The notes: generated by a model not told the origin, from the letters alone. DNA of 64,000 bases from Candidatus Helarchaeota archaeon (GCA_019058315.1 JAHPZH010000005.1:256001-320000); one strand, 5' to 3'. Counted from the first letter of the stretch, positions 30,773 through 54,236 are shown. Numbers and translations are program-made.

Positions 30773-32983
30773 TCAAATCATATCAACCTTATACGGAACT
30801 AAGTTTCGAAATGCTCTCTTCAGTAATTTAGTGTACTCTTCCACATCACATCGACTGGAGTGTTTAAGTAAGTGGGATACAAGCACGCGATTTATTGGAG
30901 TTTTCGAATTTGCGTTGGTTATGATATATCTTACTTTTTGTCCAGGGTGAATTTCAATTCCTAGATTGGTGAGCTGCTTCGCAGCAATAGCTTGCCGTGA
31001 GTTGTTCTTATATTGATGCGGGTATCTAGTGATACGGGTGGTAATCAACAGATCTTCAGGGTTATAATCTCTATTTCGTATCTTATCAATATATTTTTTT
31101 AAAACCTTGTTGTAGACTTTCGGAACTAGTTGCTTAAATTCGAAACTGTTATTCGCGTGTTTTGCAAAATAGTCAATCATCTCACTCTGTGCGTCTTTCA
31201 CTATCTTAGGAGCATCATGTCTCCTCAGTTCTATACCCCTCACTTTCATCTTTCCGTTTTTGAACACACCATAGTAATGATTTAGAGTCCCAATTTCGGG
31301 ATTGGCTTGAGTTGGAAGGAAAACAATGAACTTGTAGCAACCATCATAATCCATAGGAATTTTGGTTTCCTGTTCTATTTCCTCACAATACTCTACATAT
31401 TTATCAATTGAATTATCAGTATATTCATCCTCATCCTGTAGCCAGAGTGAGTCCACAATACCATGGAGCACGTGAAGCTTTTTTTTGCGTGCAATTTCCG
31501 CAGCTCGTAAGAGGAGCTCCCGAGAATAAGCCGTTACTGCTTGATGCCCTTCCACACGTCCAAATCGAGCATTTCGGAACCCCATATAGCCAAAACACAC
31601 GACTAATATCCATTTTAGTGCACGCTGCCTCTTGGCATACACCTCGCTATTTGGGTTTTTTGCTTTGATTAGACGCTTGTATTGGAGTCTTTTCTCTAAT
31701 ACTGTTTTTAAGGAAATCGGTACGATACCCACACGCTTCTCACAAATTCGAAACTTGATTTGAGGCACAATTCTTGATGAATTTGGACAACATTTACAAA
31801 GAAGAGTCTCTGGTGAAATGTTATATTCTTTCATTAACGTTGGATACATACTTGTGAAGTCAAATTCATGGACATCATCAAAAATGCCGATTTTCGGTTC
31901 AAAGATAAAACCACCCTTGTCTGCTTCTAGTAGTGTGAGTGCAGGTTTGAAGCATTCTGCATTTCTTTTTACGGGAGGGATGAGTATATCGTTCTTTATT
32001 GCATTGTACATTTGAATCGCTTGAAGTGCACCCCCGATTGTTATCCTTGTGAGACGCTGTATGGGAATAAAGGAGACTCTTGCAACCTCTATGATCCCTT
32101 CTAGTCCTCCGCTCCAAAAATGACCAGCAACCTTATCCAGATGAAGCCTTCCTGTCAAATAAAACTGGGAAGGAGCCCTGTAATAGACTATTCCATAGGA
32201 AAAGTAATGGGAATCTCCACTCAAGATCATCTGGCATTTTTCTAATGAGTAATTGTTTCGTGAAAGGGTCAGAGACCCGTTCAATCCATGATATGACGCC
32301 CGTGCCACAAGATAAGGAAATAAGAAATTGTCTCCAGAATTGGAATAAATAATATCAGGGTCGAGTTTTCGAACTGTATCTGATAGAGCAATCAATTTAT
32401 CGACTTCGGTGGCTCCATCAATCGTGATATCTTCTTCGTTGAGGGTTACTTTTAGCTTTCGGATGGGGTCGTTCAAACTTGGAACTATGTAACTGGCACC
32501 AATATCCGCGTCGAGATGTAAAATACGAAAATCTGGCAAAGTATAATCAATTTGATCTTGCGAATCTGCCAGCTTGAGATTTAAATGCCCATTTTTTTTG
32601 GTATAATCGCCAAATGCAAGCGGAAAAAGATTGTTGTCATATAAAAACATCTGAGAAAGTGGAATATCTATGTTAAATACTGCACTGTTCTCAAGAGATA
32701 CAACATCCCTAACCGTTCTTTTAAAATCTCGCACATTTACCTTTACCTCTATCACTTTTTTCTTTCGCTTGTGATTTATGTTGACGTACTTGTCAAGGGT
32801 CTTTACATCTTCCACGCAATCATGATACCTTAATGCTCTTTTTAACTCGTATAAATTCTTGGAATACACATAAAATCTTGGATAATAATCAACGTGCATT
32901 TTCTCTACTTGACCGTTCGGTTTCTTCAACCAAAGCGCTATTCCTCGATTTTCCACGTTCAGATCCAACAACCATGCTTTCAA
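30773..32983 (-). CDS. polB2: Family B DNA polymerase, PolB2/Dpo2 group
   Basis: Motif A DFTSMYP, motif B QRALKWILVVCFGY, altered motif C HGIVDS, KVRGIELRR, and a degenerate exonuclease domain. Confidence 0.92.
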   Translation of the reverse strand: MKAWLLDLNVENRGIALWLKKPNGQVEKMHVDYYPRFYVYSKNLYELKRALRYHDCVEDVKTLDKYVNINHKRKKKVIEVKVNVRDFKRTVRDVVSLENSAVFNIDIPLSQMFLYDNNLFPLAFGDYTKKNGHLNLKLADSQDQIDYTLPDFRILHLDADIGASYIVPSLNDPIRKLKVTLNEEDITIDGATEVDKLIALSDTVRKLDPDIIYSNSGDNFLFPYLVARASYHGLNGSLTLSRNNYSLEKCQMILSGDSHYFSYGIVYYRAPSQFYLTGRLHLDKVAGHFWSGGLEGIIEVARVSFIPIQRLTRITIGGALQAIQMYNAIKNDILIPPVKRNAECFKPALTLLEADKGGFIFEPKIGIFDDVHEFDFTSMYPTLMKEYNISPETLLCKCCPNSSRIVPQIKFRICEKRVGIVPISLKTVLEKRLQYKRLIKAKNPNSEVYAKRQRALKWILVVCFGYMGFRNARFGRVEGHQAVTAYSRELLLRAAEIARKKKLHVLHGIVDSLWLQDEDEYTDNSIDKYVEYCEEIEQETKIPMDYDGCYKFIVFLPTQANPEIGTLNHYYGVFKNGKMKVRGIELRRHDAPKIVKDAQSEMIDYFAKHANNSFEFKQLVPKVYNKVLKKYIDKIRNRDYNPEDLLITTRITRYPHQYKNNSRQAIAAKQLTNLGIEIHPGQKVRYIITNANSKTPINRVLVSHLLKHSSRCDVEEYTKLLKRAFRNLVPYKVDMI

Positions 32984-33047
32984 TCTTGGAGCCTCTTATG
33001 TTCGCTTCTCATTGATCAAAAGATCATAATCTCTTAAAATTAGAAAC

Positions 33048-33084
33048 GGAGGGAGAGATAACTGAAAGAAAGTTAATTTGTCGG
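33048..33084. promoter_or_regulatory. Composite element upstream of polB2: GGAGGGAGA...TGAAAG...TTTGTCGG (as read on +)
   Basis: Same three blocks in the same order at 54393-54434, upstream of the RadA paralog. Confidence 0.55.
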
Positions 33085-33193
33085 TTTGCTTTTTGATTAA
33101 AATATTGAAAAATAGAATAAGTTTAAGGAGAATTTTTTCCCAGTTAAATTGTCAATTATACTATTAGAATTCAATTTTAAAGGATTGATTAAC

Positions 33194-33694
33194 ATGACAG
33201 ATATTGAAGAAGTAGATAAAAGATTTGAGTCAAAAATTAAAGAATTAAAAGAGATTCTACCAGAACATTATAAGAAAGATATGAGCTCACCGAGAAATTG
33301 CGCTGCTTGGACTGTTGCAAGTATTTTAGATATTTTAGGAATTGATAACCTTAACATTATTAACATGGCTACACCCTTAGCCGTAGTTGGTGGAAATTGT
33401 GGCGCATTGGAAGGCGGCTTAATGATGGTGGGCTTAATTCTCGGGAAAAAAGGAAAAAAACCCTTTAATCATTTGGTTGCAACTATAGAAGGATTAAAAT
33501 TTGTGAAAGCATTTGAAAAAGAGTTTGGTTCAATTAAATGTAAAGATTTAACCGGTCTTGATTTATTGACTGAAGAGGGACAAAAAGCTTATGTTAATGA
33601 AAATATCTGGGAACAAAAATGCTATAAACATGTTATTGGTGCAGTAAAGACCATTAGAGATTTATATAAACGAAAAATTGCTAAAATAATTTAA
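33194..33694 (+). CDS. C_GCAxxG_C_C family putative redox protein
   Basis: NCA, CGALEG, FGSIKCKDLTG and KC; start ATG 33194. Confidence 0.85.
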   Translation: MTDIEEVDKRFESKIKELKEILPEHYKKDMSSPRNCAAWTVASILDILGIDNLNIINMATPLAVVGGNCGALEGGLMMVGLILGKKGKKPFNHLVATIEGLKFVKAFEKEFGSIKCKDLTGLDLLTEEGQKAYVNENIWEQKCYKHVIGAVKTIRDLYKRKIAKII

Positions 33695-33766
33695 TAAGAT
33701 TATTATTAAATACAAATTTTCAATTATTTATTTAAAAATTTAATAGACTTTAATGGACGAATAATT

Positions 33767-34285
33767 TTGGTCACAGTTGAGGAAGTAGAGAGACATTTTG
33801 AACTAAAAATTAAAGAATTAAAAGAAAATTTACCTTTGAAATATAAAAAGGAAAAAATTCAACCCCGAAATTGTGCTGCTTGGACTATGGCTAGTTTATT
33901 AGATATTCTGAACATTGAAGATACCAAAATTAATACTAATTTTATAAATATGGCATCCCCTTTAGCTGGAATTACTAGAATTTGTGGGGCTATTGGGGCT
34001 GGATTAATGATTATAGGATTAATTGTAGGAGAGAGGGGAGAAAGAGAAATTCCTCAATGGACAGCGGCAGCCGAGGGGATGAAGTTTGTAAGGCGTTTTG
34101 AAAAAAAATTTGAATCAATACAATGTCCTGTTCTAACAGGTCATGATTTACTAACATCAGAGGGAATGAAAGCATATATAAAGGAAGATGTTTGGGGAAA
34201 AAAGTGCTACTTGCATGTAACAAACGCAATTGAAATAATCGGTAGATTATATAAAAAAAAGATTGTAAATATCATTAAAATTTAA
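33767..34285 (+). CDS. C_GCAxxG_C_C family putative redox protein (tandem paralog)
   Basis: NCA, CGAIGA, IQCPVLTG and KC. Confidence 0.85.
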   Translation: MVTVEEVERHFELKIKELKENLPLKYKKEKIQPRNCAAWTMASLLDILNIEDTKINTNFINMASPLAGITRICGAIGAGLMIIGLIVGERGEREIPQWTAAAEGMKFVRRFEKKFESIQCPVLTGHDLLTSEGMKAYIKEDVWGKKCYLHVTNAIEIIGRLYKKKIVNIIKI

Positions 34286-34929: not shown

Positions 34930-35059
34930 CTCTTAAAATATTTACAATTTTTCCCGGTTTATTGACACTTAACATAAGTAATTTTAAAATTTAATATTAT
35001 TTTTATTAATTTTATAAATAAAAAAATTTTTTGGACATTCTAATTCATTTTTTCTATTT

Positions 35060-35800: not shown

Positions 35801-35851
35801 CCATAAAATAAAAAGAGTCTTCTCTTTCGAATTTTTGATTCTTTTGGTATA

Positions 35852-35880
35852 AAGGAAAGTTAATTTATTAGACTTTCTTT
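35852..35880. promoter_or_regulatory. Inverted repeat between divergent genes (AAGGAAAGTTAAT-TT-ATTAGACTTTCTTT)
   Basis: GAAAGT/ACTTTC and TAAT/ATTA arms. Confidence 0.4.
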
Positions 35881-35962
35881 CATATTTTTTTGAACTTTAT
35901 ATTTTTTTATGATAAATTTAAGGATTATATATTCAATTAAAACATGACTAGAAATCTAAAAT

Positions 35963-36503: not shown

Positions 36504-39500
36504 TTACTCTTCTTCAATATTTTCCATTGCTTTTAGAAATTCTTCTCTCTCTTCAGGAGAGAGTCCAGCGAGTTCTTCCAGTATTACCAATTTTTCAATT
36601 TCTGGAATTTTTAAATCGAATATTCTGTCCATTTCGCTCTTGGATAAGATTGTAAATTCACCTTGGAAATATTCCTTAAGATAGGTCTGTTTAATTGATT
36701 TTATAGGCATTCTCCAATGAATTACATCCTTAATATCTTCATTTAAGGATTCACTACTTACTACACGTTTTGAAATTGATTTTTGCCTTTTTCTTAATAA
36801 AATAGCACTCGTGCTGATTCCAACACCTGCTGCTACTACCCCTATGATTATTATAATAATTATTATATTATCATAAGGAGGGAAGAATGGAGGAATCTTA
36901 AAGGGTCCATAAATTTTTATAGTAATATATAATGATTCACCAGTGTTATTTGCTTCATCAACTGGTCTTATTTCATAACTGTATTTTCCAGATGTTAAAT
37001 TTATAAGATCTGAGTAAAAATTCGATGTTGTATTTCCTAAACATTGTCCATTACGCCAGATTTGGTAATAAACAGTGCTATAATCAAAAGATGCTGTCCA
37101 TGAAATTGTTACATTACCTTGTTGAATGATAATTCCAGGATTTAAAGGTTTTGTAGGTGGTGTATTGTCTTGGACCGTTATGGAAGAAAAGAAAAAAGGC
37201 CCCCAATTATTAAAAGTATCATTGGCAATAATTGTATAAGATATTACTCCAAAAGCACTTGGAGTCCAATTATATTCATAAGTATTTCCTCCAATGGGAA
37301 CCATAGTATCATTTACTCCTCCAATTTCTATTATAACCTTCGAAATACCATCGGCATCATAAGCATCAATCCGAATCGAAGCTTCTTGCCCCAATTCTAA
37401 AGGATCTGTAATTTCAGTCAAATTTTCAAGCCAAGGTTCAATTGTAATAATTATTGATACATTAATATCTCCACTAACCGAATTCCAATTATTTAGATTA
37501 TCAGACATGTATACAGTATAAGGATAAATACCAATAGCACTAGGCTGCCAATCAGTCCATCTCCAAGTATTTCCACTTATATAATTCATTGTGTGGTTTG
37601 ATCCTTCATATTCTAATAATACTTGATTTATTCCTGAAAGATCAGATACATTGATAGTTATAGTTTCATTTTGACCCAAATCCAAAGGATCTGCGCTTTC
37701 TGTTAAGTTGCCATAAGTTGGAGAAGTAGTATCAATAACTTCAATTGTAGCTCCTCGTGAGTTCCAATTATTTGCACCATCTTCAGCCCAAATGGTATAA
37801 GGATAGTTGCCTATACTATTGGGTGTCCAATTATCGTATCTCCAATAATTTCCACCAATATTGGTCATGGTATGGTTAGATCCTTCAAATTCAATTAAGA
37901 CTTGAATAATACTTGACAAATCATAAACAACAGCATCTATTATTTTAGGTTGACCTAATTCCAGCGGATATATGGATTCGAGTACCGAATACATTATTTC
38001 CTCATCTGTTCCCCATTCACCATTAGTGTAATCATGCCATACCACATGGATACTGCTATTATTATCAGAAGTAATGCTTGCTGCAATACTATGATCATTA
38101 TTCCATCCATAATAATCGGATATACAAATTACATTAGACCAACCCGCGGTTGTATAGCTAGCATACTTTATATGATCTGCTGGACCTCCAAAATTAATCG
38201 AATCCTCCCAAACTACGTGGATATTATCATTTTTATCCGTGATAATACTGGGTCTAAAACTCCAATAATCATTCAATCCATAAATATCTGAAATACAAGT
38301 TGCATTAGACCAACCCGCAGCTGTATAGTTTACATAAAAAATTTCTCTATCTGTTCCCCATTCACCATCAGTTTCATCATCCCAAACTACTTGTAGATTT
38401 CCAGTCTTATCAACAGTGATGCAAGGGAGAAAACTGTCACCATCATTCCAACCATAAATATCTGAAATGCAAGTTGCATTAGACCAGCCTGCTGCTGTAC
38501 AATTTGCATAAAATATTTCTCTATCTGTTCCCCATTCTCCGTATGTATAATCCATCCAGACCACGTGTACATTTCCATTAATATCAGTAGAGATTCTAGG
38601 ATAATAACTACTATTATCATTCCAACCATAATAATCGGATATACAAGTTACATTAGACCACCCAGTAGCAGTATAATTTACATACATTATTTCAACATCA
38701 GTTCCCCATTCACCATCGGTATCATCATACCAAACCACATGAACATTTCCATTATTATCCACAGCGATATCTGGGTTAAGACTATTATGTACATTCCATC
38801 CGGTATAGTCATCTGAAATCACAGTTGCATTAGACCACCCAGCAGCAGTATAATTTACATACATTATTTCTATATCATTTCCATATTCCCCATTGGTACT
38901 ATCATACCAAACAACATGTATATTTCCATTATTATCCACAGCAATTCTAGGCCTCCGACTTGAATCATCATTCCACCCTGTATAATCGTCTGAAATCACT
39001 GTTACATTAGACCATCCAGCAACAGTATAATTTACATACATTATTTCAACATCAGTTCCCCATTCACCATCTGTATTATCCTCCCAGACCACGTGTATAT
39101 TTCCATTATTATCAGTAGCTATGGCTGGGTACCAACTAGTCCAATCATTCCACCCCGAACTGTCATCTGAAATCACTGTTGCATTAGACCAATTCATAGT
39201 TAGATTAATTATTGATGGAGGAGTGGTGTCTACCACTGTCACCGTCACGTTGTCCGTTGCCCAGTTGCCCGCAGTGTCGTTCACGCTGCACCTATAATCG
39301 TATGTGCCGATTCCCAGTGCAGGAAGGGTATACGTTATATTGGTTCCGACAGACCAGGTGCCGTCAGCCAGATAAGTGCCAACAAGTGTGATATTATACT
39401 CGTTAGGTGATATATCATTCCACTCCCATTCCAAGGTATACCCCGCAACTGCTCCCAGCTCCAATGTAATATCCGGTGCCCCTGCCAAAAGAGTTGGAGG

Positions 39501-42500
39501 AGCTGGAGGAATTAGCACCGTCACCGTAACGTTGTCCGATGACGAGTAGCCGAAAGTGTCGTTCACGCCGCATATATATACATATACGCCCATTCCCAGT
39601 GCAGGTAGGGTATATGTTACATTGGTCCCGACTGACCAAGTGCCGTCAGCTAGATAAGTGCTAATAATTGTAATATTATACTCATTAGGAGTTGCATCAG
39701 TCCAATTCCATTGTAGCTGATACCCCGCAACCGAGCCCTCATATAAATTGATATCTGGTGCGCCCGCCAGTAAATTCGGAGGTATGCTTTCCAGCACCGT
39801 CACCGTCACGTTGTCCCATGCCCAGTTGCCCGATGTGTCATTCACGCCGCACATATATTCATATACACCTGGTCCCAGCATAGGAAGGGTATACGTTATA
39901 TTGGTTCCGACTGACCAGGTGCCGTCACCCATATAAATGCCAATAAGGGTGATATTATACTCATTAGGTAATAAATCATTCCAATTCCATTCTAAGTTAT
40001 ACCCCGCAACCGAGCCCTCAGATAAGGTGATGTCTGGTGCGCCTGTAACTAAATTCGGGTTCATGCTGTCTACCACCGTCACCGTTACGTTGTCCGTTGC
40101 CCAGAGATCCGTAGTATCGTTCACGGCGCACATGTAATTGTATGTACCTAGTCCCAACGCCGGAAGGGTGTAGGTTATATTGGTCCCGACCGACCAGGTG
40201 CCGTCAGCAAGATAAGTGTAAATAAGGGTGATGTTATACTCGTTAGGATTTAAATCATTCCAAGCCCATTGCAATTGGTATCCCGCAACTGCTCCCAGCT
40301 CCAACGTGATATCCATTGCACCTGCTAGTAAAGTTGGAGGTATATTAAAAGGTTCAACTGTCACCGTCACATTGTCCCATGCCCAGTTGCCCGACGTGTC
40401 GTTTACGCCGCACATATAATCGTATATACCGGGTCCCAATGCAGGAAGGGTGTACGTTACATTGGTCCCGACAGACCACGTGCCGTCAGTAAGATAAGTG
40501 TCAATAAGGGTGATGTTATACTCGTTCGGTAATAAATCGTTCCAATCCCATTCTAATGTATAACCTGCAACCGCTCCCAGCTCCAGGGTGATGTCCAGTG
40601 CACCAGCAAGTAAATTCGGAGCCGTTCTGTCTACCACCGTCACCGTCACGTTGTCCCATGCCCAGTTGCCAAATGTGTCGTTCACGCTGCACATATATTC
40701 ATATACGCCTAGTCCCAGCACAGGAAGGGTATACGTTACATTAGTCCCGACCAACCACGTACCATCAGCTAAATAATTATCGACAAGAGTGATATTATAC
40801 TCGTTAGGATTAGTATCAGTCCAATTCCATTGCAGCTGATATCCTGCAACTGCTCCCAGCTCCAAGGTGATGTCAGGGGTAACCGCCGAAAGAAATGGAA
40901 TAAGTGGAAGATTTGCCACTGCCACCGTAAGGTTGTCCCATGCCCAGTTGCCCGACGTATCGTTCACGCCGCACATGAACTCATATACGCCTAGTCCCAA
41001 TGCAGGCAGGGTATAAGTTACATTGGTTCCGACTGACCAGGTGCCGTCAGCTAGATAACTCCCGATTAGAGTGATGTTATACTCATTCGGTAATAAATCA
41101 TTCCACGCCCATTCTAAGGTATACCCCGCAACAAAACCTTCATTTAGAATGATGTCAGGTGCTCCCGCTACTAAATTCGGAGGCGTAGTGTCTACCACCG
41201 TCACTGTCACGTTGTCAGATGCCCATGTGCTGTAGCCGAAAGTCTCATTCACGGTGCACATGTAATTGTATGTGCCTAGTCCTAACACCGGAAGGGTATA
41301 TGTTATATTTATACCAGAAACCCATCCACCACTATCTACCACACTGCCTACCAAAGTGATATTATACCGATCAGGTTTATAAGTAGACCAATTCCACTCT
41401 AAAACATAACCTGCAACTGCTCCCAGCTCTAATGTAACATCAGGTGCACCCGCCAGTAATAACGGAAGACAATTACAATCCACCGTTACCGTCACGTTGG
41501 CCCATGCCCAGTTGCCAGAACTGTCGTTCACGCCGCACATATACTCATATGTGCCCAGTGCCAAAGCCGGAAGGGTATACGTTACATTGGTCCCGACAGA
41601 CCAGCTGCCGTCAGCTATATAACTGCCAATAAGGGTGATATTATACTCGTTAGGAGCTACATCATTCCAATCCCATTCCAACATATAACCTGCAACAGAA
41701 CCCTCCAAAAATATAACATTAGGTGCACCCGCTACTAAGTTCGGAGGCGTGCTGTCTTCCACCGTCACCATCACGTTGTCCCATGCCCAGTTGCCCGCAG
41801 TGTCGTTCACGTTGCACCTATAATCGTATGTGCCTATTCCTAGCGCAGGAAGGGTATATGTTATATTGGTCCCGACTGACCAGCTGCCGTCAGCCAGATA
41901 AGTGCCAATAAGTGTGATATTATACTTGCTAGGATCAACATCAGTCCAAGCCCATTCCAACACATAACCCGCAACACTGCCCAGCTCTAAGGTTACATCA
42001 GGAGCACCTGCCAATAAATCTGGTTTTGGGTCGGGGTCTGGCACCGTTACCGTCACGTTATCCCATGCCCAGTTGCCCGCAGTGTCGTTCACGCCGCACA
42101 TATACTCGTATACGCCCGGTCCCAAGGCGGGAAGGGTATATGTTATATTAGTCCCGACAGCCCAAGTCCCGTCAACTACAACACTACCAAAAAGTGTGAT
42201 ATTATACTCGTTAGGTAATAAATCATTCCAATCCCATTCTAGGACATAACCTGCAACAGATCCCAAAGGTAACCAGGCATCAGGTGCACCCGCCAGTAAA
42301 TTAGGAGGCGTGCTGTCTACCACCGTCACTGTCACATTGTCAGTTCCCCAGTCGCCCGATGTGTCGTTCACACCGCACATATACTCATATACGCCTAGTC
42401 CCAACGCAGGAAGAGTATACGTTATATTGGTTCCCACCGACCACGTGCCGTCAGCTAAATAAGTGCTGACAAGTGTAATGTTATACAAGTTAGGTTCTAA

Positions 42501-45500
42501 ATCATTCCAATCCCATTGCAGCTGATACCCCGCAACTGCTCCTAGCTCCAACGTGATGTCCGGTGCGCCTGCTAATAAATTCGGAGGGGAGGGGTCTGGC
42601 ACCGTAACCGTCACGTTATCCGATACCCAGTTGCCCGAAGTGTCGTTCACGCCGCACATATACTCGTATGTGCCGATTCCCAAAGCTGGAAGGGTATATG
42701 TTATATTAGTCCCGACAGACCAGGTCCCGTCAGCTAAATAAGTGCCAATAAGGGTAATGTTATACTCATTAGGAAATAAATCATTCCAATCCCATTCTAA
42801 GGTATACCCCGCAACTGCTCCCAACTCCAACGTGATATCAGGTGCACCTGCAAGTAAATTGGGTGGCGTAATATCTTGAACAGTAATAGAATTATTTAAA
42901 AAATTCCAATAGCCATCTATAGTATCATTAGCAAAAATGGTATATTCAATAACCCCAATTAAGCTTGGTGTCCAATTATACTCGTAAGTATTACCACCAA
43001 TGGGATTCATTGTATAATTGGCATTAATTATTTTAATTATTACTGTATCTACACTGGTTTCATTATCATAAGCATCAATTCGGATACATGCTTCTTGTCC
43101 AAATTCTACAGGATCTGTAATTTCAGTTAAGTTTTCTAATCTTGGTGGAAAATAAACAGTCGTCCAAACTTCAGAAGATGTGCTAACAAATCCTACCTTG
43201 TCAAAAGTTTCAAGTACATAGTAATACGTATCCCCATCTTGTATATTATTATCAAGAACTGATGTATTTATTGTACCTGAAGTATTTGTTACTAAAGTAG
43301 TATAGGGTCCCCCAGAACTCGTACTCCGCCACAGTACATAATAATCAATGCCGCTACCAGTAGCGTTTCCAATTCCAGGATCATCATAACCTGGATTTCC
43401 AGACCAATCAATTAAAATTGATCTTGCTCTAGTTATTGGAGGTAGTGCAATTGGTTGAGCAGCAGTTGGTGGGGTGTTATCCAGTTCTAAATAAACATGA
43501 GAATAGACAGATATACCAGAAGTTTCATTTTTTGCAGTTATGTTTACTAAATAGTTAGAATCAAAACGAGTATTAGACATTGAAATTGTGTGGTTATTAA
43601 TATACTGTGTATTACCTAAATCAGTTGTAGATTCTGCTGTCCCTCCATTACTATCGATCCTCGACCAATCAACAGTGACGTTAAGCCCCGCAAAATTCGT
43701 ATCAATAATTAAATCGATAGTTGATCCATTTTTACAACTTAATGATGAAGGGGTTACGTATTCAAAGATAGGGTATGGAATTGGGGGAGCAGATTGTAAT
43801 TTGTAGCTAATAGGGGTGGTTGCAGGATTACTTAGATCTGTTTTATATCTTCTATATTCGAGTTCTGCCCGATCCACATCTGAAACGTTATCAAATAGGT
43901 CGTAAACAATCCTGAAATAGTAAGGATCTGTTGTTAATGTGCTTCCATCAGGTATATCAAATCCAGTAGCACACCATCCTAATTCACCAAATTGCTGAAT
44001 ATCATTTAAATACATATATGGCGTACCTCCATATAATTCAAATGAAGGTATCATCTCTTGTCTTGGCAGATACATCCACATTCCTCCATGAGTTTCAGAA
44101 GTAACCATAATATAATCTGCAATACCTTCATTACCGGAAGGTGGTATTGTGGGTGGGTCAGTTGTCGGATCCCCTCCATTTAACAAATTATCATCTGCAT
44201 CGGTTCCACTAAAATAAATATATTTTTCACTGCCAACCGGATAATCGGGATTGGCATCTGCAGGAACATATCCCGGATATCCGCCCGGATTCCCACCCAG
44301 AATGGCTGAAAAATCAGTTCTCGTTGCATTATCAAACTGAACTGTCGGTAACCACATACCTACATCTAAAAAATTATAACCCCATGCTGTAATAGAGAGT
44401 GCATCTTTATCACCTTGTTCCATATTTTGGTAAAAAATGTGTACAGATTGTTCAATATACCACTCTTCTACATCTCCTACAATAGGTATATTAGTTAGAT
44501 AAGCTTGTTCATAGCTATTTTTTTGCAAAATAACTCGGACTGGTCCATTTTTAACTGCCAGACGATCTCCTTCGGTATCCCACCCATTCCAACCCGGTTG
44601 ATTAGGTGGCAGGGATAGTTGTATTGCGTATTCATTTGGATTATCAATTCCAGTTCCGCGGGTATTATAATATGTTCCACCCCATGTTCCGTAGGTCATA
44701 ATATCTTTGTAAATATCGATAGCATCCAAACTTAAAATCGAACATGCTCTTTCTAAATGTAATCCCGTAAAACCTTTGTCCATTTCATAGACAACATCCA
44801 CTCCATCACTACCCGGAGCTATAATTTTCAAACTGTCAATTATATCAGGATCATTATTATTAAACCGTTTTTGGTAAATTGGTGTCGTGACGGTTAAATT
44901 GCTTGGATCCCAACTCACTTTAGTTTGAAATGTCGGTATTTCTTGTTTTGTTATATTATTAAAATAAATATACATGAAAGATACTCCCCCATCAATTGGA
45001 TCTGAAATGTTAATTTCCAATCTCCAAGGAAAATTTTGCCTATCCCACCACGTATTTTCTCCAACATACCTTCCATTTTCCATATAAAAACAAATTTCAT
45101 CATCATAGTCAATGGCATATGGTACTTGAGTTCCAGTATCCCTCCCGTATAGATCAATTGGTTCGTAGTTATCTGTTCCATTTTTAGAAACATATGTATG
45201 AGTCGAATTAAATATAGGATCATATAGGGGATTACCTAAAGGTCCAGATAACATTCCCCAATCCCACATTAATGGCCATCCCTTCTCATCTATTTGATAT
45301 GGCACTTCAACCCATTGGTTTGAAGCGTTATAATATAGAACACGAATATAACTTTCATTCAATCCCCCTAGTGCACTGAACACGTATGGACTCTCATTCA
45401 TTCTAATGATTAATGGGTAACCTACCCTAGTCAAATTTGGTTCATTTGCGACTTTTGAAGTTAATGGAAACTTAATGTCATAAATCTCATTGGGAATTCT

Positions 45501-45650
45501 AATTTCATTAAGGCTAATATATATGTTAATATCAGGATTATACGTTATTTTATCATCCAAATCAAAGAAAGAGCTAATACCAATAGAATTTAATAATATT
45601 AAAGTTGATATTAGAATTATTAATCCACATTTTAACCTTTTACTCTTCAT
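36504..45650 (-). CDS. Giant (3048 aa) single-pass cell-surface glycoprotein: signal peptide, N-domain, FN3/Ig-like domains, 13 tandem Ig-like repeats, 7-blade propeller, further Ig/FN3, TM and cytoplasmic tail
   Basis: Repeats visible in protein and DNA; many NxT/S sequons; IIIIIIIIGVVAAGVGI TM followed by RKRQK. Confidence 0.9.
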   Translation of the reverse strand: MKSKRLKCGLIILISTLILLNSIGISSFFDLDDKITYNPDINIYISLNEIRIPNEIYDIKFPLTSKVANEPNLTRVGYPLIIRMNESPYVFSALGGLNESYIRVLYYNASNQWVEVPYQIDEKGWPLMWDWGMLSGPLGNPLYDPIFNSTHTYVSKNGTDNYEPIDLYGRDTGTQVPYAIDYDDEICFYMENGRYVGENTWWDRQNFPWRLEINISDPIDGGVSFMYIYFNNITKQEIPTFQTKVSWDPSNLTVTTPIYQKRFNNNDPDIIDSLKIIAPGSDGVDVVYEMDKGFTGLHLERACSILSLDAIDIYKDIMTYGTWGGTYYNTRGTGIDNPNEYAIQLSLPPNQPGWNGWDTEGDRLAVKNGPVRVILQKNSYEQAYLTNIPIVGDVEEWYIEQSVHIFYQNMEQGDKDALSITAWGYNFLDVGMWLPTVQFDNATRTDFSAILGGNPGGYPGYVPADANPDYPVGSEKYIYFSGTDADDNLLNGGDPTTDPPTIPPSGNEGIADYIMVTSETHGGMWMYLPRQEMIPSFELYGGTPYMYLNDIQQFGELGWCATGFDIPDGSTLTTDPYYFRIVYDLFDNVSDVDRAELEYRRYKTDLSNPATTPISYKLQSAPPIPYPIFEYVTPSSLSCKNGSTIDLIIDTNFAGLNVTVDWSRIDSNGGTAESTTDLGNTQYINNHTISMSNTRFDSNYLVNITAKNETSGISVYSHVYLELDNTPPTAAQPIALPPITRARSILIDWSGNPGYDDPGIGNATGSGIDYYVLWRSTSSGGPYTTLVTNTSGTINTSVLDNNIQDGDTYYYVLETFDKVGFVSTSSEVWTTVYFPPRLENLTEITDPVEFGQEACIRIDAYDNETSVDTVIIKIINANYTMNPIGGNTYEYNWTPSLIGVIEYTIFANDTIDGYWNFLNNSITVQDITPPNLLAGAPDITLELGAVAGYTLEWDWNDLFPNEYNITLIGTYLADGTWSVGTNITYTLPALGIGTYEYMCGVNDTSGNWVSDNVTVTVPDPSPPNLLAGAPDITLELGAVAGYQLQWDWNDLEPNLYNITLVSTYLADGTWSVGTNITYTLPALGLGVYEYMCGVNDTSGDWGTDNVTVTVVDSTPPNLLAGAPDAWLPLGSVAGYVLEWDWNDLLPNEYNITLFGSVVVDGTWAVGTNITYTLPALGPGVYEYMCGVNDTAGNWAWDNVTVTVPDPDPKPDLLAGAPDVTLELGSVAGYVLEWAWTDVDPSKYNITLIGTYLADGSWSVGTNITYTLPALGIGTYDYRCNVNDTAGNWAWDNVMVTVEDSTPPNLVAGAPNVIFLEGSVAGYMLEWDWNDVAPNEYNITLIGSYIADGSWSVGTNVTYTLPALALGTYEYMCGVNDSSGNWAWANVTVTVDCNCLPLLLAGAPDVTLELGAVAGYVLEWNWSTYKPDRYNITLVGSVVDSGGWVSGINITYTLPVLGLGTYNYMCTVNETFGYSTWASDNVTVTVVDTTPPNLVAGAPDIILNEGFVAGYTLEWAWNDLLPNEYNITLIGSYLADGTWSVGTNVTYTLPALGLGVYEFMCGVNDTSGNWAWDNLTVAVANLPLIPFLSAVTPDITLELGAVAGYQLQWNWTDTNPNEYNITLVDNYLADGTWLVGTNVTYTLPVLGLGVYEYMCSVNDTFGNWAWDNVTVTVVDRTAPNLLAGALDITLELGAVAGYTLEWDWNDLLPNEYNITLIDTYLTDGTWSVGTNVTYTLPALGPGIYDYMCGVNDTSGNWAWDNVTVTVEPFNIPPTLLAGAMDITLELGAVAGYQLQWAWNDLNPNEYNITLIYTYLADGTWSVGTNITYTLPALGLGTYNYMCAVNDTTDLWATDNVTVTVVDSMNPNLVTGAPDITLSEGSVAGYNLEWNWNDLLPNEYNITLIGIYMGDGTWSVGTNITYTLPMLGPGVYEYMCGVNDTSGNWAWDNVTVTVLESIPPNLLAGAPDINLYEGSVAGYQLQWNWTDATPNEYNITIISTYLADGTWSVGTNVTYTLPALGMGVYVYICGVNDTFGYSSSDNVTVTVLIPPAPPTLLAGAPDITLELGAVAGYTLEWEWNDISPNEYNITLVGTYLADGTWSVGTNITYTLPALGIGTYDYRCSVNDTAGNWATDNVTVTVVDTTPPSIINLTMNWSNATVISDDSSGWNDWTSWYPAIATDNNGNIHVVWEDNTDGEWGTDVEIMYVNYTVAGWSNVTVISDDYTGWNDDSSRRPRIAVDNNGNIHVVWYDSTNGEYGNDIEIMYVNYTAAGWSNATVISDDYTGWNVHNSLNPDIAVDNNGNVHVVWYDDTDGEWGTDVEIMYVNYTATGWSNVTCISDYYGWNDNSSYYPRISTDINGNVHVVWMDYTYGEWGTDREIFYANCTAAGWSNATCISDIYGWNDGDSFLPCITVDKTGNLQVVWDDETDGEWGTDREIFYVNYTAAGWSNATCISDIYGLNDYWSFRPSIITDKNDNIHVVWEDSINFGGPADHIKYASYTTAGWSNVICISDYYGWNNDHSIAASITSDNNSSIHVVWHDYTNGEWGTDEEIMYSVLESIYPLELGQPKIIDAVVYDLSSIIQVLIEFEGSNHTMTNIGGNYWRYDNWTPNSIGNYPYTIWAEDGANNWNSRGATIEVIDTTSPTYGNLTESADPLDLGQNETITINVSDLSGINQVLLEYEGSNHTMNYISGNTWRWTDWQPSAIGIYPYTVYMSDNLNNWNSVSGDINVSIIITIEPWLENLTEITDPLELGQEASIRIDAYDADGISKVIIEIGGVNDTMVPIGGNTYEYNWTPSAFGVISYTIIANDTFNNWGPFFFSSITVQDNTPPTKPLNPGIIIQQGNVTISWTASFDYSTVYYQIWRNGQCLGNTTSNFYSDLINLTSGKYSYEIRPVDEANNTGESLYITIKIYGPFKIPPFFPPYDNIIIIIIIIGVVAAGVGISTSAILLRKRQKSISKRVVSSESLNEDIKDVIHWRMPIKSIKQTYLKEYFQGEFTILSKSEMDRIFDLKIPEIEKLVILEELAGLSPEEREEFLKAMENIEEE
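37980..39197 (-). repeat. Seven 58-59-aa beta-propeller blade repeats
   Basis: WSN.T.ISD..GWND..S..P.I..D.NGN.HVVW.D.T.GEWGTD.EI.Y repeated 7 times. Confidence 0.88.
39230..42870 (-). repeat. 13 tandem repeats of about 280 bp (about 93 aa) encoding Ig-like domains
   Basis: Unit PPNLLAGAPDITLELGAVAGY.LEW.WND..PNEYNITL..TYLADGTWSVGTNITYTLPALG.G.YEYMCGVNDTSGNWAWDNVTVTV; high DNA identity and visibly higher GC. Confidence 0.92.
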
Positions 45651-49793: not shown

Positions 49794-49942
49794 ATTCTCA
49801 CTTCTAGATATTGAATATAATTCCAGCTGAACACTTTGAATATATTTTTAATTATTTTTACAATCAATTAAATAATCTATGGAACTATTTTGAGAATTTT
49901 ATTATTTTTCATATTTCGTTTAATTTAAATTTGAGATGTGTA

Positions 49943-51316
49943 ATGATGAAGGATGATTTGAAATCTCAAATAAGCAAATTTTTTTACCCAAAATCTGTTG
50001 CCATTATTGGTGCATCCCGTAGTCCCACTAAATTTGGGAACTTGTTTCTTAGATCTTTTATAACTAATAAATTCCCTGGTAAAATTTATCCGATTAATCC
50101 TAAAGCAGATGAAATTCTAGGAGTTGAAGCTCATAAAAATTTGATTGATATTCAAGATCCTATAGATTTAGCAATTATTACAACTCATCCTGCTGAAAAT
50201 ATAAAGTTGGTCAAAGATTGTGTTAAAAAAGGTATTGAAGCAATAATTATATTCTCTGCAGGTTATGCTGAAATTGGGGAAGCTGGAAGAGAGAGGGAAA
50301 AAGAGTTATTATCAATCATAAAGGGAAAAGCTAGAGTAATAGGTCCAAATTGTGTTGGAATTCATTCTGCTCCTGGTAGAGTTTCTTCCTTTCCTGCAAC
50401 CTCTTTCGATTTAGATGCCGAAGTGGCCGTATTATCTCAAAGCGGATATTTAACATCCCTTTTAACAAGAATTTTAACACTTCGTGGAATTCCTGTAACA
50501 TTTGCAGTTAGTTTAGGCAATTCTATTGATTTGAATATCTGTGATTTTCTTGAATATTTTAAAGAGGAAAATAATACGAAATATATAGGAATGTATCTGG
50601 AGGGTGTTTCTCAAGGAGACCGGTTTATAAAATTATGTAAAGACATGAGGGGCAAAAAACAATTAATAATTTGGAAACCGGGAAGAACTAATATAGGAAA
50701 AAAAGCTATATCAACCCATACAGCAAGTATTACTGGGGAAGATAAGATATGGAATGCTATTTTTAGTCAATATAGTATATTCCGAGTTAATTCAGCCGAA
50801 GAAATATTGAATCAAGTTATCGCATTAAAATTTTCAGAAACTATGAAAGGACCAAAAGTTGGTATTGTTGGTTCTCAAGGGGGATTAACCGTAACTACTG
50901 CTGAAAATTGCGAATATTATGGTATTGAATTAGCTAAATTAACTGATCACACTAAGGAACAACTAAGAAAAGCAATTCCGGAATTTGGCACTAGCGTTAA
51001 TAATCCAGTAGACATTTCAATTGCTGCAGCGATGAATTCAAAGCTTTATGCAGATGCTGGTAAAATAGTACTTAAGGATAAGAATGTAGACATTCTGTTA
51101 ATTAATGGAACTTGGATGTTAGACAGTCTATTCATAAAATATTTATTAAGTCTTAGAAAAGTAAACGATAAACCTATTTTTTTTATAGAACCATCAATTC
51201 CAGAGAGATTAAGATCTTATAGAAAACTCTTAAACAATAAAATTGGGGTTACTTTTACTTCATTTTCATTTTTAAGATTTTTAAAAAGCGCAATTGATTC
51301 CAAATTTAAAATGTAA
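49943..51316 (+). CDS. Acyl-CoA synthetase (ADP-forming), alpha subunit
   Basis: PKSVAIIGAS, SAGYAE, IGPNCVG, SQSG, THTAS and NPVD; start ATG 49943. Confidence 0.92.
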   Translation: MMKDDLKSQISKFFYPKSVAIIGASRSPTKFGNLFLRSFITNKFPGKIYPINPKADEILGVEAHKNLIDIQDPIDLAIITTHPAENIKLVKDCVKKGIEAIIIFSAGYAEIGEAGREREKELLSIIKGKARVIGPNCVGIHSAPGRVSSFPATSFDLDAEVAVLSQSGYLTSLLTRILTLRGIPVTFAVSLGNSIDLNICDFLEYFKEENNTKYIGMYLEGVSQGDRFIKLCKDMRGKKQLIIWKPGRTNIGKKAISTHTASITGEDKIWNAIFSQYSIFRVNSAEEILNQVIALKFSETMKGPKVGIVGSQGGLTVTTAENCEYYGIELAKLTDHTKEQLRKAIPEFGTSVNNPVDISIAAAMNSKLYADAGKIVLKDKNVDILLINGTWMLDSLFIKYLLSLRKVNDKPIFFIEPSIPERLRSYRKLLNNKIGVTFTSFSFLRFLKSAIDSKFKM

Positions 51317-51465
51317 AATTCAAAAAATTTTACCGATTTTAAAATATTATAAGTCAAATATATCATAAATTAGTCAAGAAATCTTATTTTAGTTAATGAG
51401 TTTGTGAAAAAAATTCTTATTACTTTTCTTAATTGTATTTTAAAAAGAATGTGAAGTTGATTAAA

Positions 51466-52794
51466 ATGACTGAAAGAAAAAACGTAGTTGTAGTTTCTGC
51501 AAAAAGGGCTCCAATGGGAAAAAGTTCTTGGAATCCCGCTGCTAAACCAGGAATTTTTTATTGGGCTAATGCTCAAGACTTTGGTGGACAGATTTTTAGA
51601 AATATTTGGGAAGATGCTAAGAAGAAAGCACCTGATCTCAAGCCAGAGGAGCTTGAAGCGATTGCGTATGGTTGTTCAGGGCAGTATGGAGCACAATCTG
51701 GAGATATAGCTCGGCTTTCCGCAGTGGTCCAAAAATCAAAAGATTTTTACCCGGTATTTGGGGTTACTTGTGATTCCTACTGTAATGCTGGAACTTCTGC
51801 AATACAATATATTAATAACATGCTAGCCCTCGGTCAAGGTGAAGTGGGAGTAGCCGGGGGACAAGAATTACTATCTCTTTTCCCTTTAGGCTCTTCAATG
51901 ATGGCGCACATACAAGATAAGAAAACAGGGAAACCCACTCATAAAAGAGTACTTGAAATGCATAAATTATTCATGAAACGAACATTAGGTCTTGGACCTG
52001 CAGGTGAAAAAATTGCTTGGATGTGGAATTTAAAGAGAGAAGATTTAGATGAATTTGCCGCTCGTAGTCACCGGAATATGATTAAAGTTCAAAGACAAAA
52101 AGATAAATACGAACCTAGAATAATGCCAATAACTATGCCGGTCTGTAATGAAAAAGGCAAACCAATAAAAGATCCTGAAACAAGAAAAATAAAAACAATT
52201 ACGCATACAGTTGATGAGACTCCACGAGCTGTTTATTTAGATAATCCTGAAAAAGCAATGGAAAAAATGAAAAGCCTTAAAGCACGATTTAGTGATGGAG
52301 AACATTTTCCCCCAAAGTACATACATGCTGGAAACGCTAGTGCGATATCGGATGGTGGAGCTGCGATGCTTTTAATGACCGAAGAAAAGGCATCACAATT
52401 AGGCGCTAAACCTCTTGCTAGAATTGTTGATATCTCTAATTCAGCATCGGATCCTTCAGTTGTTCTTACAGGACCTATTCCAGCTACAAAGAAAATATTA
52501 AAAAGAAATGGATTAAAATTTGATGATTTTGATTTGATACACATTAACGAGGCGTTTGCGAGTGTCCCATTTGTAGTCATGCACGAATTAGGAAGTAATG
52601 CTTTAACTGATGAGCGTTTAAATACGTCGGGGGGTGCTATAGCTGGGGGACATCCGATAGGAGCATCTGGAGTTGCTTGGGCTGTGGAGTTAATATGGGA
52701 AATGATCCATAATAAGAAAAAGCTTGGACTTTTCACCTTGTGTGCTGGGTTTGGCAATGGAATGTCTGTGGTCTTTGAAAATATGCAAATCTAA
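51466..52794 (+). CDS. Thiolase (acetyl-CoA C-acyltransferase)
   Basis: SYCNAG catalytic Cys, NEAFA, GHPIGASG and LCAGFG. Confidence 0.93.
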   Translation: MTERKNVVVVSAKRAPMGKSSWNPAAKPGIFYWANAQDFGGQIFRNIWEDAKKKAPDLKPEELEAIAYGCSGQYGAQSGDIARLSAVVQKSKDFYPVFGVTCDSYCNAGTSAIQYINNMLALGQGEVGVAGGQELLSLFPLGSSMMAHIQDKKTGKPTHKRVLEMHKLFMKRTLGLGPAGEKIAWMWNLKREDLDEFAARSHRNMIKVQRQKDKYEPRIMPITMPVCNEKGKPIKDPETRKIKTITHTVDETPRAVYLDNPEKAMEKMKSLKARFSDGEHFPPKYIHAGNASAISDGGAAMLLMTEEKASQLGAKPLARIVDISNSASDPSVVLTGPIPATKKILKRNGLKFDDFDLIHINEAFASVPFVVMHELGSNALTDERLNTSGGAIAGGHPIGASGVAWAVELIWEMIHNKKKLGLFTLCAGFGNGMSVVFENMQI

Positions 52795-52890
52795 CATTAA
52801 ATAAAATTTCTACTCTTTTTTTAAACAATTTTTTTTAACCATTTAAAAAAAATTAAGAGATTTTGAAAGATATTTCTCTTTATACCAAAT

Positions 52891-53082
52891 TTATGTATAA
52901 TAAGGTAGGGTAGGTTTATCAAATTCCAGGCCTATAAGAATTTCATAAGTTTCACAACTTGGACATTTGACATCATTTAGAGGGGTTTCGCCCTCTAATC
53001 CAAAAAATATATTGCATTTTATACAATAAAATGACAGCGTTGGTTTTAAATCCGTTTTTTTTAATTCAATTTTTTCCTTCAA
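52891..53082 (-). CDS. Small zinc-finger protein (63 aa)
   Basis: CIKC ... CPSC; GAGG SD upstream of TTG. Confidence 0.65.
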   Translation of the reverse strand: MKEKIELKKTDLKPTLSFYCIKCNIFFGLEGETPLNDVKCPSCETYEILIGLEFDKPTLPYYT

Positions 53083-53241
53083 ATTTTTACTAACCTCTTC
53101 TATAATTTTTTTTCATTTTTTTATAGAATTTAAGGTCAAACTTCAATAATTCTAACATTTTCAGCCATTACTTTAATTATATCATTTTGTCGATTTAAAT
53201 TTTATTAATTTAATTAAATTAATAACTTTAACATTTTTCTT

Positions 53242-53517
53242 TTATTTTGGTGTTTCCGATTCTAAATTTTTTAATTTTTGAACCTCATCCTTCAGTTCTT
53301 GAATTTCTTTTTGTAATTCGAGTAAAATAGAGATGAAGAGAACCTCAGATACCAGTGGTCGTGAGATATAACCTCCAGCATCTGCTCGTAAGCGTGCCGC
53401 ATTCATAATTTTGTCGAAGTTCTTTTTATCTGCTGGACGCAAGGCTCGTCGAAATTCTGCCCAACTCGCAATTTCGTGTTCCAATATCATTCTAAACGTA
53501 GGTATTGTTCGTCCCAT
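53242..53517 (-). CDS. Small helical PolB2-associated protein (arCOG07300-like)
   Basis: MGRTIPTFR...W.EFRRALR..D...FD; its ATG overlaps the upstream stop (TAATG at 53515-19). Confidence 0.8.
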   Translation of the reverse strand: MGRTIPTFRMILEHEIASWAEFRRALRPADKKNFDKIMNAARLRADAGGYISRPLVSEVLFISILLELQKEIQELKDEVQKLKNLESETPK

Positions 53518-54236
53518 TAAGGTTCCCCCAGCCAAAAGTTGAGATTTCTTTGTAGAGGTATCGGGGTTGATTTCCACATGATATTTTTTTGGAAACGACC
53601 TCCTTTGAGTTTATAGAAATCTATACGATTTTGATAATCTAATACATGAACAATTACATCAGCAAAATGACTCATAATCTTGCCTCCTGCTGGTTTAAAC
53701 CGTGAGTTCTGAGCATATCCTGTAGAAACTACAACAACCGCATTTTTTTCAAGCGCAAATTTTTTAAGCTTTCCGAGAATTTTTAAGAGATCTCCAAAGC
53801 AAGACTGTGTTTTGGGGTCGAACATACCAGTCAATCCCGAAATGAGAAGAAGTCGTGCCTCTAATCCTTTCATTTTATTTATGACAATATCGACCGTTTG
53901 TTCCCAAGTGAAGAATCGGGAGATGAGAATACGTGATAAGACATGACGAGGGTTTAGTTTTTTAGTGACGGATTTTTGGGAGATGAAGTAGGGATCAAAG
54001 GAAACATCACCGTCCACATAGATTACTTTCGAATTAAGACCATTAAGTGATCGCGGTAGTTGAGCTGTAACTGATAGCGTTAGAAAAATCTGTCTAATTA
54101 CAGATCTTTGCCCATATAAAAGATAAAGAGTTCTGGGCATAAATCCTCCATCAAGTAAGTCGTCTAATTCTGCATTTTCACTGGTCAATTTAGTTATGTT
54201 TTTTTGTCGATTGTATTCGTGTGAAGCGGAGTTCAT
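53517..54236 (-). CDS. RadA/RecA-fold paralog with degenerate Walker A and C-terminal PIP-like motif
   Basis: LDDLLDGG, LYGQRSVIRQ (no GKT), VIYVDGDVSFDP, GGKIMSHFAD and QRNLNFWL. Confidence 0.85.
   Translation of the reverse strand: MNSASHEYNRQKNITKLTSENAELDDLLDGGFMPRTLYLLYGQRSVIRQIFLTLSVTAQLPRSLNGLNSKVIYVDGDVSFDPYFISQKSVTKKLNPRHVLSRILISRFFTWEQTVDIVINKMKGLEARLLLISGLTGMFDPKTQSCFGDLLKILGKLKKFALEKNAVVVVSTGYAQNSRFKPAGGKIMSHFADVIVHVLDYQNRIDFYKLKGGRFQKNIMWKSTPIPLQRNLNFWLGEP

Follow-up and report, generated by a model that had tools for sequence, protein, structure and literature searches.

The DNA polymerase PolB2 was placed by Makarova, Krupovic & Koonin (2014; PMC4104785) in predicted operons with arCOG07300 and an inactivated RadA, with arORC2 noted among the neighbours in archaea and lexA among those in bacteria. 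Timinskas, Timinskas & Venclovas (2025; PMC11791011) renamed the two partners PPB2 and iRadA, introduced the term “PolB2 mutasome”, and used AlphaFold to model a PolB2-iRadA-PPB2(3) heteropentamer in 40 species, in which the MGRT arm of PPB2 inserts between PolB2 and iRadA. PPB2 was described there as an N-terminal MGRT arm followed by three helices, with Arg3 and Arg9; clamp-binding motifs were more frequent on iRadA than on PolB2, and an analogy was drawn to the Pol V mutasome (UmuD'2C-RecA). PPB2 proteins, of about 90 aa, are characterised as homotrimers with an asymmetric docking on PolB2-iRadA. The published survey covered only loci whose genes lie close together. Here, we describe the same three genes, divided between two loci that share an upstream element, in a 64,000-nucleotide stretch of a Candidatus Helarchaeota archaeon genome (GCA_019058315.1, JAHPZH010000005.1:256001-320000; “the window”).

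The closest described regulatory system is that of Sulfolobus, in which the 20-bp consensus AATAGTTTCRGWDTACTCWS was obtained by Sun et al. (2018; PMC6061795) from promoters induced by 4-nitroquinoline 1-oxide (NQO). Mutation and footprinting experiments in that study demonstrated binding of Orc1-2 to the ANTTTC core of the consensus, and the induction of dpo2 was reported to require Orc1-2. In the literature searched, we found no description of a promoter element shared by PolB2 mutasome genes, nor of an element of the Sulfolobales damage type (DDRE) outside that group. The Sulfolobales DDRE (ANTTTC) is reportedly bound by Orc1-2 (Sun et al. 2018; Le et al. 2017).

The window corresponds to contig C2, 256001-320000, of the genome that we number G000 (5.8 Mb, 30% GC, 12 contigs). 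Its nearest relatives are Candidatus Helarchaeota (Meg19_1012_Bin_504, Hel_GB_A), and its class-level relatives are Promethearchaeota/Lokiarchaeia metagenome-assembled genomes; 60 relatives were searched with each of the iRadA, PolB2, and PPB2 proteins (literature families of iRadA: arCOG07763/04294/08101).

The two loci encode the subunits of a PolB2 mutasome

30773..32983, minus strand: PolB2, a Dpo2-type family B polymerase of 736 aa with a TTG start
53517..54236, minus strand: iRadA, a RadA/Rad51 ATPase-core paralog of 239 aa (Pfam Rad51, 1.4e-18)
53242..53517, minus strand: PPB2 (arCOG07300), 91 aa, an MGRTIPTFR N-terminal arm and three helices

PolB2 matched both Pfam DNA_pol_B (4.7e-32) and NCBIfam NF004416 (2e-109). 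When aligned with the active PolB of G000, it keeps the motif A Asp (DFTSMYPT vs DFASLYPS), and its motif C reads HGIVDS rather than YGDTDS, so that the first Asp of DxD is substituted and the second is kept; H507-G-I-V-D511 is invariant in 31 orthologs. At ExoI, DIE has become DAD, at a site that is variable in relatives (AIK, EIK, DIK); the catalytic Asp of ExoII is Leu (L, A, or V in aligned relatives), and the Yx3D segment of ExoIII is deleted. The proofreading exonuclease is, by these residues, dead. Between ExoII and the deleted ExoIII, Y260, Y263, G264, G278, R279, and H281 are invariant and D283, which is followed by K284, is nearly so; this block may correspond to the loop through which PolB2 proteins contact iRadA and PPB2, which has a beta-alpha motif and a conserved D(K/R) (253-DK-254 in S. 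islandicus). No C-terminal PCNA-interacting peptide (PIP) tail was found on PolB2 in G000's order, which lacks the PIP-like C-terminus QKDLSCFF of Lokiarchaeia PolB2 (L056:5083-7488).

The iRadA alignment covers only the RadA/Rad51 ATPase core (Dmc1 residues 90-222 and core-only RadA constructs), and the N-terminal domain is therefore missing. The protein has no GxxxxGKT, and LISG stands in place of the Walker B hhhhD; the same is true of 30 orthologs. Its C-terminus, PLQRNLNFWL, is PIP-like and matches the ortholog tail ...TLDYWF, an ending that is present in both G000's order and Lokiarchaeia. The iRadA stop codon (TAA, 53519-53517) overlaps the PPB2 start codon (ATG, 53517-53515) by one base, giving TAATG. 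PPB2 itself matched no Pfam family; M1, G2, R3, T4, P6, F8, and R9 are invariant in 13 orthologs, and an AF2 model (mean predicted local distance difference test score, pLDDT, 76) places the arm at residues 1-6 and helices at 7-25, 28-46, and 56-88.

The initial annotation of the window had pointed to a PolB2 with HGIVDS and a dead exonuclease, a RadA-fold protein without a Walker A GKT, and the translational coupling of the latter to an MGRTIPTFR-type small protein (TAATG); the family matches, the alignment to the active PolB, the ortholog comparison, and the DNA itself agree with each of these observations. Between them, the two loci supply all three subunits of an archaeal PolB2 mutasome that is already known, and because this protein module has been published, its presence here is ordinary. 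What is new is (i) the fragmentation of the operon across a whole order, and (ii) a putative DDRE-like element, conserved and unique in the genome, that links the fragments with one another and with a few repair genes.

A partial second copy of iRadA was also observed at G000:C2:12823-13110 (+) (L064:2309-2719), as a 136-aa open reading frame (ORF) with 64% identity to residues 122-220. It adjoins an operon that is preceded by the motif described below and that encodes a 149-aa protein, a Rad51-family paralog, and a protein resembling single-stranded DNA-binding protein (SSB).

An ancestral operon is split throughout one Asgard order

Among the 60 relatives, iRadA was found in 51, PolB2 in 50, and PPB2 in 52; all three genes were missing from four. 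Other single absences fell mostly at contig ends, as in G007, G013, G025, and G035, where iRadA lies ~1.3 kb or less from the end of its contig, on the side on which PPB2-PolB2 would be expected. In 41 relatives (families f4 and f5), PPB2 is situated 30-55 nt 5' of PolB2, with iRadA 0.1-4.5 kb further upstream on the same contig; an intact example is G032:C5 (iRadA 106650-107294, PPB2 107388-107639, PolB2 107670-109964). Insertions of unrelated genes separate iRadA from PPB2 in some relatives, and iRadA is inverted in genus g8.

Within the Helarchaeota-like order to which G000 belongs, PolB2 adjoins PPB2 in no genome. Four relatives (G001, G003, G005, and G006) have iRadA and PPB2 adjacent, as in G000; PolB2 lies on a different contig in G001, G003, and G006, and was not found in G005, which is 82% complete. 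In family f2 (G002 and G004), PPB2 stands alone and the three genes occupy three contigs. Since no genome of the order has PolB2 beside PPB2, the split read from these gene orders is correct and order-wide, and it is old. That the window's separate loci belong to one module with a broken operon had been proposed from the window alone, and synteny in these Asgard relatives agrees on both counts: the ancestral iRadA-PPB2-PolB2 cluster is present in 41 of the 60 genomes and broken in G000's order, with three separate loci in f2. PolB2 identity to the G000 protein is 58% in the family, ~46% in the order, and 43-46% in most class-level relatives; because identities drop with taxonomic distance, vertical inheritance of the module genes is suggested.

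In one Lokiarchaeia relative, a 46-aa CxxC...CxxC ORF (L056:4518-4658, +) lies immediately 5' of PPB2.

The same composite element precedes both loci

33048..33084, minus strand: PolB2 composite element, comprising a CCGACAAA box, ACTTTC/TTTC, 6 nt, CTCTCCCTCC, and then TATA-like TAATTTTAAG
54393..54434, minus strand: iRadA-PPB2 composite element, comprising a CCGACAAA box, ACTTTC-ACTTTT, 6 nt, CTCCCTCC, and then TATA-like AATTAATATTTT

The PolB2 element is located 65-100 nt before the TTG start, within a 165-nt divergent intergenic region, and the iRadA-PPB2 element 157-198 nt before the ATG. The two upstream regions read AAACCGACAAATTAACTTTCTTTCAGTTATCTCTCCCTCC and AACCCGACAAAAATTCAATACTTTCACTTTTCCAGATCTCCCTCC, each followed by an AT-rich, TATA-like box. 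When gaps of 10-40 nt were allowed, CCGACAAA-N20/25-CTCCCTCC occurred exactly twice in the 5.8-Mb genome, once before each unit; by our estimate, ~0.01 occurrences of the composite CCGACAAA...CTCCCTCC would be expected by chance. The matching promoters reported earlier thus hold far beyond chance, the composite being confined to 33048-33084(-) and 54393-54434(-). Neither CCGACAAA nor TTTGTCGG is enriched across the genome, and the enrichment is only local: CCGACAAA alone occurs 81 times on both strands, approximately the number estimated from base composition, and a single strand holds 45 copies of TTTGTCGG. When the regions upstream of the two units were compared by simple local alignment, an AT-rich chance match was returned and the motif was missed, and a fixed-spacing pattern found no match because the spacing of the element differs by 5 nt between the loci.

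In relatives, the core motif AATA[CG]TTTC-N4-AY-CTCTC lies upstream of iRadA, and in the split genomes it also precedes the detached PolB2 and, in G002, the detached PPB2; the G002 iRadA promoter is a weak match. Among the units with readable upstream DNA (the G003 iRadA and G004 PPB2, at contig ends, were excluded), every detached unit keeps this putative common motif, with the G002 iRadA as the weak case. The predicted co-regulation of the split units, which had been part of the original proposal, is therefore well supported.

Among 40 Lokiarchaeia loci, 28 have a diverged version of the motif, ACTTTYAATNACCYCTC, in the iRadA promoter, and 38 have a AGAAAATTGTCGG box closer to the gene; the distance from one box to the other is constant at ~117 nt. 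The reverse complement of AGAAAATTGTCGG, CCGACAATTTTCT, holds both a CCGACAA box and ATTTTC, suggesting that the compact G000 element may be a fusion of the Lokiarchaeia ACTTTYAATNACCYCTC and AGAAAATTGTCGG boxes. No motif was found at the Thermoplasmata PolB2 loci L152, L160, L163-165, and L168, which are among the best 80 of roughly 500 PPB2 loci, all 80 of them Asgard or Thermoplasmata.

The motif is found before other repair genes

A position weight matrix (PWM) was built from six promoters of relatives only, and then scanned over G000. Of 11.6 M positions, the PolB2 promoter took rank 5 and the iRadA promoter rank 12, and seven of the top 12 positions were intergenic, compared with 10% of random positions (P=5e-5). 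The other five intergenic matches precede (i) a small ORF, a Zn-ribbon protein, and an SSB-like OB-fold protein; (ii) a phospholipase D (PLD)-like nuclease; (iii) a paralogous small-ORF/Zn-ribbon pair; (iv) a Hef helicase (NF010337, 617 bits); and (v) an operon encoding a 149-aa protein, a Rad51-family paralog, and a second SSB. A strict pattern, ASTTTCNNNNAYCTCTC, yielded 18 matches in five same-order genomes, compared with one for the backwards control. These matches include the iRadA and PolB2 promoters, as well as sites before an rSAM_link_UDG (radical-SAM) putative repair gene in two same-order genomes, before an Lrs14-like helix-turn-helix (HTH) gene in two genomes (G005 and G006), and before a family of 47-60-aa ORFs with a TGCGCA box.

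These last sites belong to a paralogous promoter family, in which a TGCGCA box, a DDRE-like motif, and TTTAATCTGATC precede 47-64-aa ORFs of no known family. Its sites include G000:C11:638719-639011 and C3:1299368-1299933 (L061, L062), G006 C41 and C74 (L078, L082), and G001 C64 (L081); in the G000 members, small Zn-ribbon proteins are encoded downstream.

The motif resembles the Sulfolobus damage element, and candidate regulators are encoded in the genome

The core motif AATA[CG]TTTC-N4-AY-CTCTC contains an ANTTTC core that matches AATAGTTTCRGWDTACTCWS. When AATAGTTTCRGWDTACTCWS was scanned literally over G000, the best match was the promoter of the PLD nuclease, whose sole mismatch falls at the free N of ANTTTC; shuffled-column controls gave 0.1 matches at that mismatch level. 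The second-best match (C6:37838) is not clearly upstream of any gene. G000 encodes one Orc1-1-type initiator and three non-initiator Orc1/Cdc6 paralogs (C6:65440-66642, C11:236319-237509, and C3:1275763-1276953), none of them in the window. The best structural match of these three paralogs is 1fnn, which we take to be of the Orc1-2 class. The link to Sulfolobus is, in our view, a lead with partial support rather than a demonstration.

A weakly predicted PolB2-iRadA complex

Co-folding of PolB2 with iRadA gave a median score of 0.58, compared with 0.00 for the best of three controls; at least 75% of contacts agreed between runs, and partner pLDDT was at least 77. Of 80 solved complexes, 58 attained the mark for a complex, as did 2 of 110 mismatched pairs. 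Those passing with a score of 0.60 or less comprised 7 of the 80 solved complexes and both of the passing mismatches, counts that are approximate, own alignments having been used. The interaction that had been expected between the separated products is accordingly predicted for the PolB2-iRadA pair with weak support. Because the 40 published models of homologous complexes are favourable, we take the score of 0.58 as consistent with an interaction, and no more.

Interpretation of the shared element

Gene identities, ancestral synteny, the split, and the uniqueness, conservation, and enrichment of the motif were all computed; from them we infer that the complex may form in this organism, that the motif would be a site for a transcription factor, and which protein that factor might be. 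The account that we favour, and consider probable, is that a PolB2 mutasome operon was broken in two and that its units remain co-regulated through the shared element, as part of a small repair regulon. In this account, PolB2 is an error-prone, proofreading-dead family B polymerase, iRadA an ATPase-dead RadA paralog with a C-terminal tail of the PCNA-binding type, and PPB2 a small helical protein whose MGRT arm would be inserted between the other two. The ancestral iRadA-PPB2-PolB2 operon, intact in Lokiarchaeia-type relatives, came apart in the Helarchaeota-like order, each unit having kept or regained the same cis-element, ANTTTC-N6-CTCTC (joined in the G000 family to the CCGACAAA box), just 5' of a TATA-like box. 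With the same cis-element on each unit, the subunits would still be made together, and because the motif precedes a handful of other DNA-repair genes, the module would belong to a small regulon. The trigger would most likely be DNA damage, sensed by a non-initiator Orc1/Cdc6 paralog as in Sulfolobus; induction by damage through an Orc1-type regulator is proposed by analogy.

Several results weigh against this account. The PolB2-iRadA score is a weak pass. In genus g11 (G054, G017, and G018), PolB2 and PPB2 are present but iRadA was not found with the query used, and no DDRE-like motif lies upstream of either gene; in G054, the two are 1.2 Mb apart on a single contig (C1:3001815-3004241 and 4178575-4178907; L171, L172). 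Hence neither the trio nor its element is obligatory. Beyond the module, regulon membership is not conserved gene by gene: no site at a PWM score of at least 10 accompanies the Hef orthologs of G001, G004, and G005, and with the thresholds used, no close ortholog of either the PLD nuclease or the motif-linked RadA paralog was found in the five same-order genomes. The likeness to Sulfolobus concerns a short, degenerate motif, whose one genome-wide match at one mismatch or fewer is modestly above chance. Finally, no orc1/cdc6 gene lies beside either locus, the nearest being on other contigs.

The last of these points also favours a different reading, to which we give a distinctly smaller, though appreciable, chance: that the motif is a real regulatory site read by another factor, such as a transcription factor B (TFB) paralog or a small winged helix-turn-helix (wHTH) protein, with a trigger other than damage (replication stress, growth phase, or cell cycle). 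The motif found before the Lrs14-like HTH gene in two relatives could mark such a factor as autoregulated, but the G000 ortholog of this gene lacks it. CGACAA/TTGTCG occurs 13 times in the window, compared with 5.4 expected, and nine of the 13 are at the two loci; these boxes form perfect palindromes, which are typical of dimeric repressors. Nevertheless, ANTTTC + 6 nt + CTC coincides with the Orc1-2 site at each position, and the genes downstream of the motif are overwhelmingly concerned with DNA repair. Control might instead be translational, if the pyrimidine block CUCUCCCUCC were transcribed and, mimicking an anti-Shine-Dalgarno sequence within the leader, hid the ribosome-binding site. 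This we regard as improbable. CUCUCCCUCC is indeed complementary to a GGAGG-type Shine-Dalgarno (SD) sequence, the Lokiarchaeia versions (ATCACCTC) resemble the 16S 3' end, and the CCUC of the iRadA leader pairs with the SD GAGG in both the minimum free energy and the centroid folds; yet that leader folds no more stably than shuffled sequences (z=+1.0), had no Rfam match, and contained no known RNA element. Moreover, the distance from motif to SD ranges from 37 to ~270 nt among sites, the ANTTTC half, which is the best-conserved part, has no role in such a mechanism, and both promoters have a TATA-like box 3' of the motif, a position that puts the likely transcription start downstream of the motif.

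Least probable of all, and in our judgement very remote, is that function drifted after the split, with PolB2 working alone or with other partners and the likeness of the motifs surviving as a relic of an old promoter duplication. Genus g11, with PolB2 and PPB2 but no iRadA found, would fit such drift, as would the reported in vitro activity of S. islandicus Dpo2 alone (PMC8764526, PMC7390963). The motif, however, is kept across families down to ~45% PolB2 identity, and a relic would be expected to decay in AT-rich intergenic DNA. The PPB2 arm residues and the PolB2 loop (Y260, Y263, G264, G278, R279, and H281, with D283 nearly so) are invariant, and the predicted PolB2-iRadA interface, if weakly, passes against zero-scoring controls. 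Further, within G000's order, the PIP-like tail is kept by iRadA alone, suggesting that PolB2 depends on iRadA.

The order offers a natural experiment, in which the operon of a presumed obligate complex has been broken once or twice; the same rare cis-element on the readable fragments is independent, sequence-only evidence that the three proteins have to be produced jointly. A defined 40-bp element and three non-initiator Orc1/Cdc6 paralogs make a short candidate list for the regulator. The motif also nominates further members of the regulon, namely small Zn-ribbon and 47-64-aa proteins, SSB paralogs, Hef, the PLD nuclease, and the radical-SAM repair protein, and the element and candidate regulators open a route to asking whether the closest prokaryotic relatives of eukaryotes share the damage response known from Sulfolobus. 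That Asgard archaea retain the Orc1-2/DDRE damage network itself, the PolB2 mutasome being its core target, is a more tentative proposal, which we rate at somewhat below even chances. Were it true, this network, shown so far only in Sulfolobales, would be older than the divergence of TACK and Asgard archaea; the motif would suffice to keep a fragmented operon together as a regulon; and damage regulons of uncultured Asgard genomes could be read out with its help.

Surroundings of the two loci

25938..26942, minus strand: canonical recombinase RadA (NF003301, 459 bits), 3.8 kb 3' of PolB2 on the same strand; context only
30033-30164, minus strand: unannotated 43-aa CxxC...CxxC (Zn-ribbon) ORF, 3' of PolB2, behind three palindromic boxes
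30412..30675, minus strand: 87-aa protein with an N-terminal transmembrane helix and a Cys-rich tail, 3' of PolB2; link to the module uncertain
52891..53082, minus strand: 63-aa zinc-ribbon-like CxxC...CxxC protein, 3' of PPB2, with a TCGACAAAA box upstream (53186-53192)

The GC contents of PolB2 (0.389) and iRadA (0.374) fall at the 97th and 94th percentiles of 3486 long G000 ORFs, and their GC contents at third codon positions at the 99th and 98th; that of PPB2 is 0.384. The statement in the initial annotation that both loci are richer in GC than their neighbours thus applies to the module genes, but not in comparison with the neighbouring thiolase gene (51433-52794), which is equally rich. 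Small Cys-rich genes do follow both loci, as had also been noted (the 87-aa and 63-aa proteins). They were rejected as parts of the module because neither is conserved 3' of it in same-order relatives.

The three palindromic TTGTCG/CGACAA boxes (30182-30330) read TTGTTAATTCGACAA, a perfect TTTTGTCG-GTCT-CGACAAAA with an N4 spacer, and TTGTCTAATCCGACAA. Their half-site is the one that flanks both promoter elements, and perfect TTGTCG-N(0-10)-CGACAA palindromes number only two in the whole G000 genome. A CCGACAAA box (27124-27130) lies ~180 nt 5' of the canonical RadA gene.

A giant ORF of 3048 aa (36504-45650, -), whose central part (~39000-43000) has 45-49% GC, lies between the loci. Paralogous acetate-CoA ligase alpha-like genes are found near PolB2 (28450-29922, -) and near iRadA (49811-51316, +). 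Two tandem genes of the C_GCAxxG_C_C family (33149-33694 and 33767-34285, +) diverge from PolB2 across the common intergenic region.

Comparison with known systems

The module shares with the published PolB2 mutasome the same three protein families; a first DxD Asp replaced by Ile, as in S. islandicus (IID); an exonuclease without its active site; an iRadA without N-terminal domain and ATPase residues; a PPB2 with the MGRT arm, Arg3, and Arg9; and a PCNA-type motif that is on iRadA and not on PolB2. It differs in having no single operon: 21 kb separate PolB2 from iRadA-PPB2, and a sister family has each of the three genes at its own locus.

The Asgard motif has the layout of the Sulfolobales DDRE (AATA, an ANTTTC core, 6 nt, and CTC) and likewise stands upstream of polB2/dpo2 and other repair genes, in a genome with non-initiator Orc1/Cdc6 paralogs. 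The DDRE, however, belongs to Thermoproteota rather than Asgard archaea; the motif here has a longer 3' block (CTCTC[CC]) and an extra CCGACAA box, and lies 37-270 nt from the start codon, compared with 23-55 nt.

With E. coli Pol V (UmuD'2C-RecA-ATP) and with ImuA-ImuB-DnaE2, the module would have in common an error-prone polymerase, a RecA/RadA-fold accessory protein, and a small partner within a damage regulon, but the polymerase is of family B rather than Y or C, the small subunit is unrelated, and the regulator here is not LexA. The initial annotation had proposed a split, co-regulated analogue of imuABC. The module, the split, and the co-regulation stand, but the idea had been published before, and the published analogue is Pol V rather than ImuA-ImuB-DnaE2; with a family B polymerase, and PPB2 rather than ImuB as the small partner, the locus falls outside the latter system. 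Both systems appear to contact the clamp through an accessory subunit, ImuB in ImuA-ImuB-DnaE2 and iRadA here, and the likeness to either bacterial complex, drawn by analogy, is one of function and not of homology.

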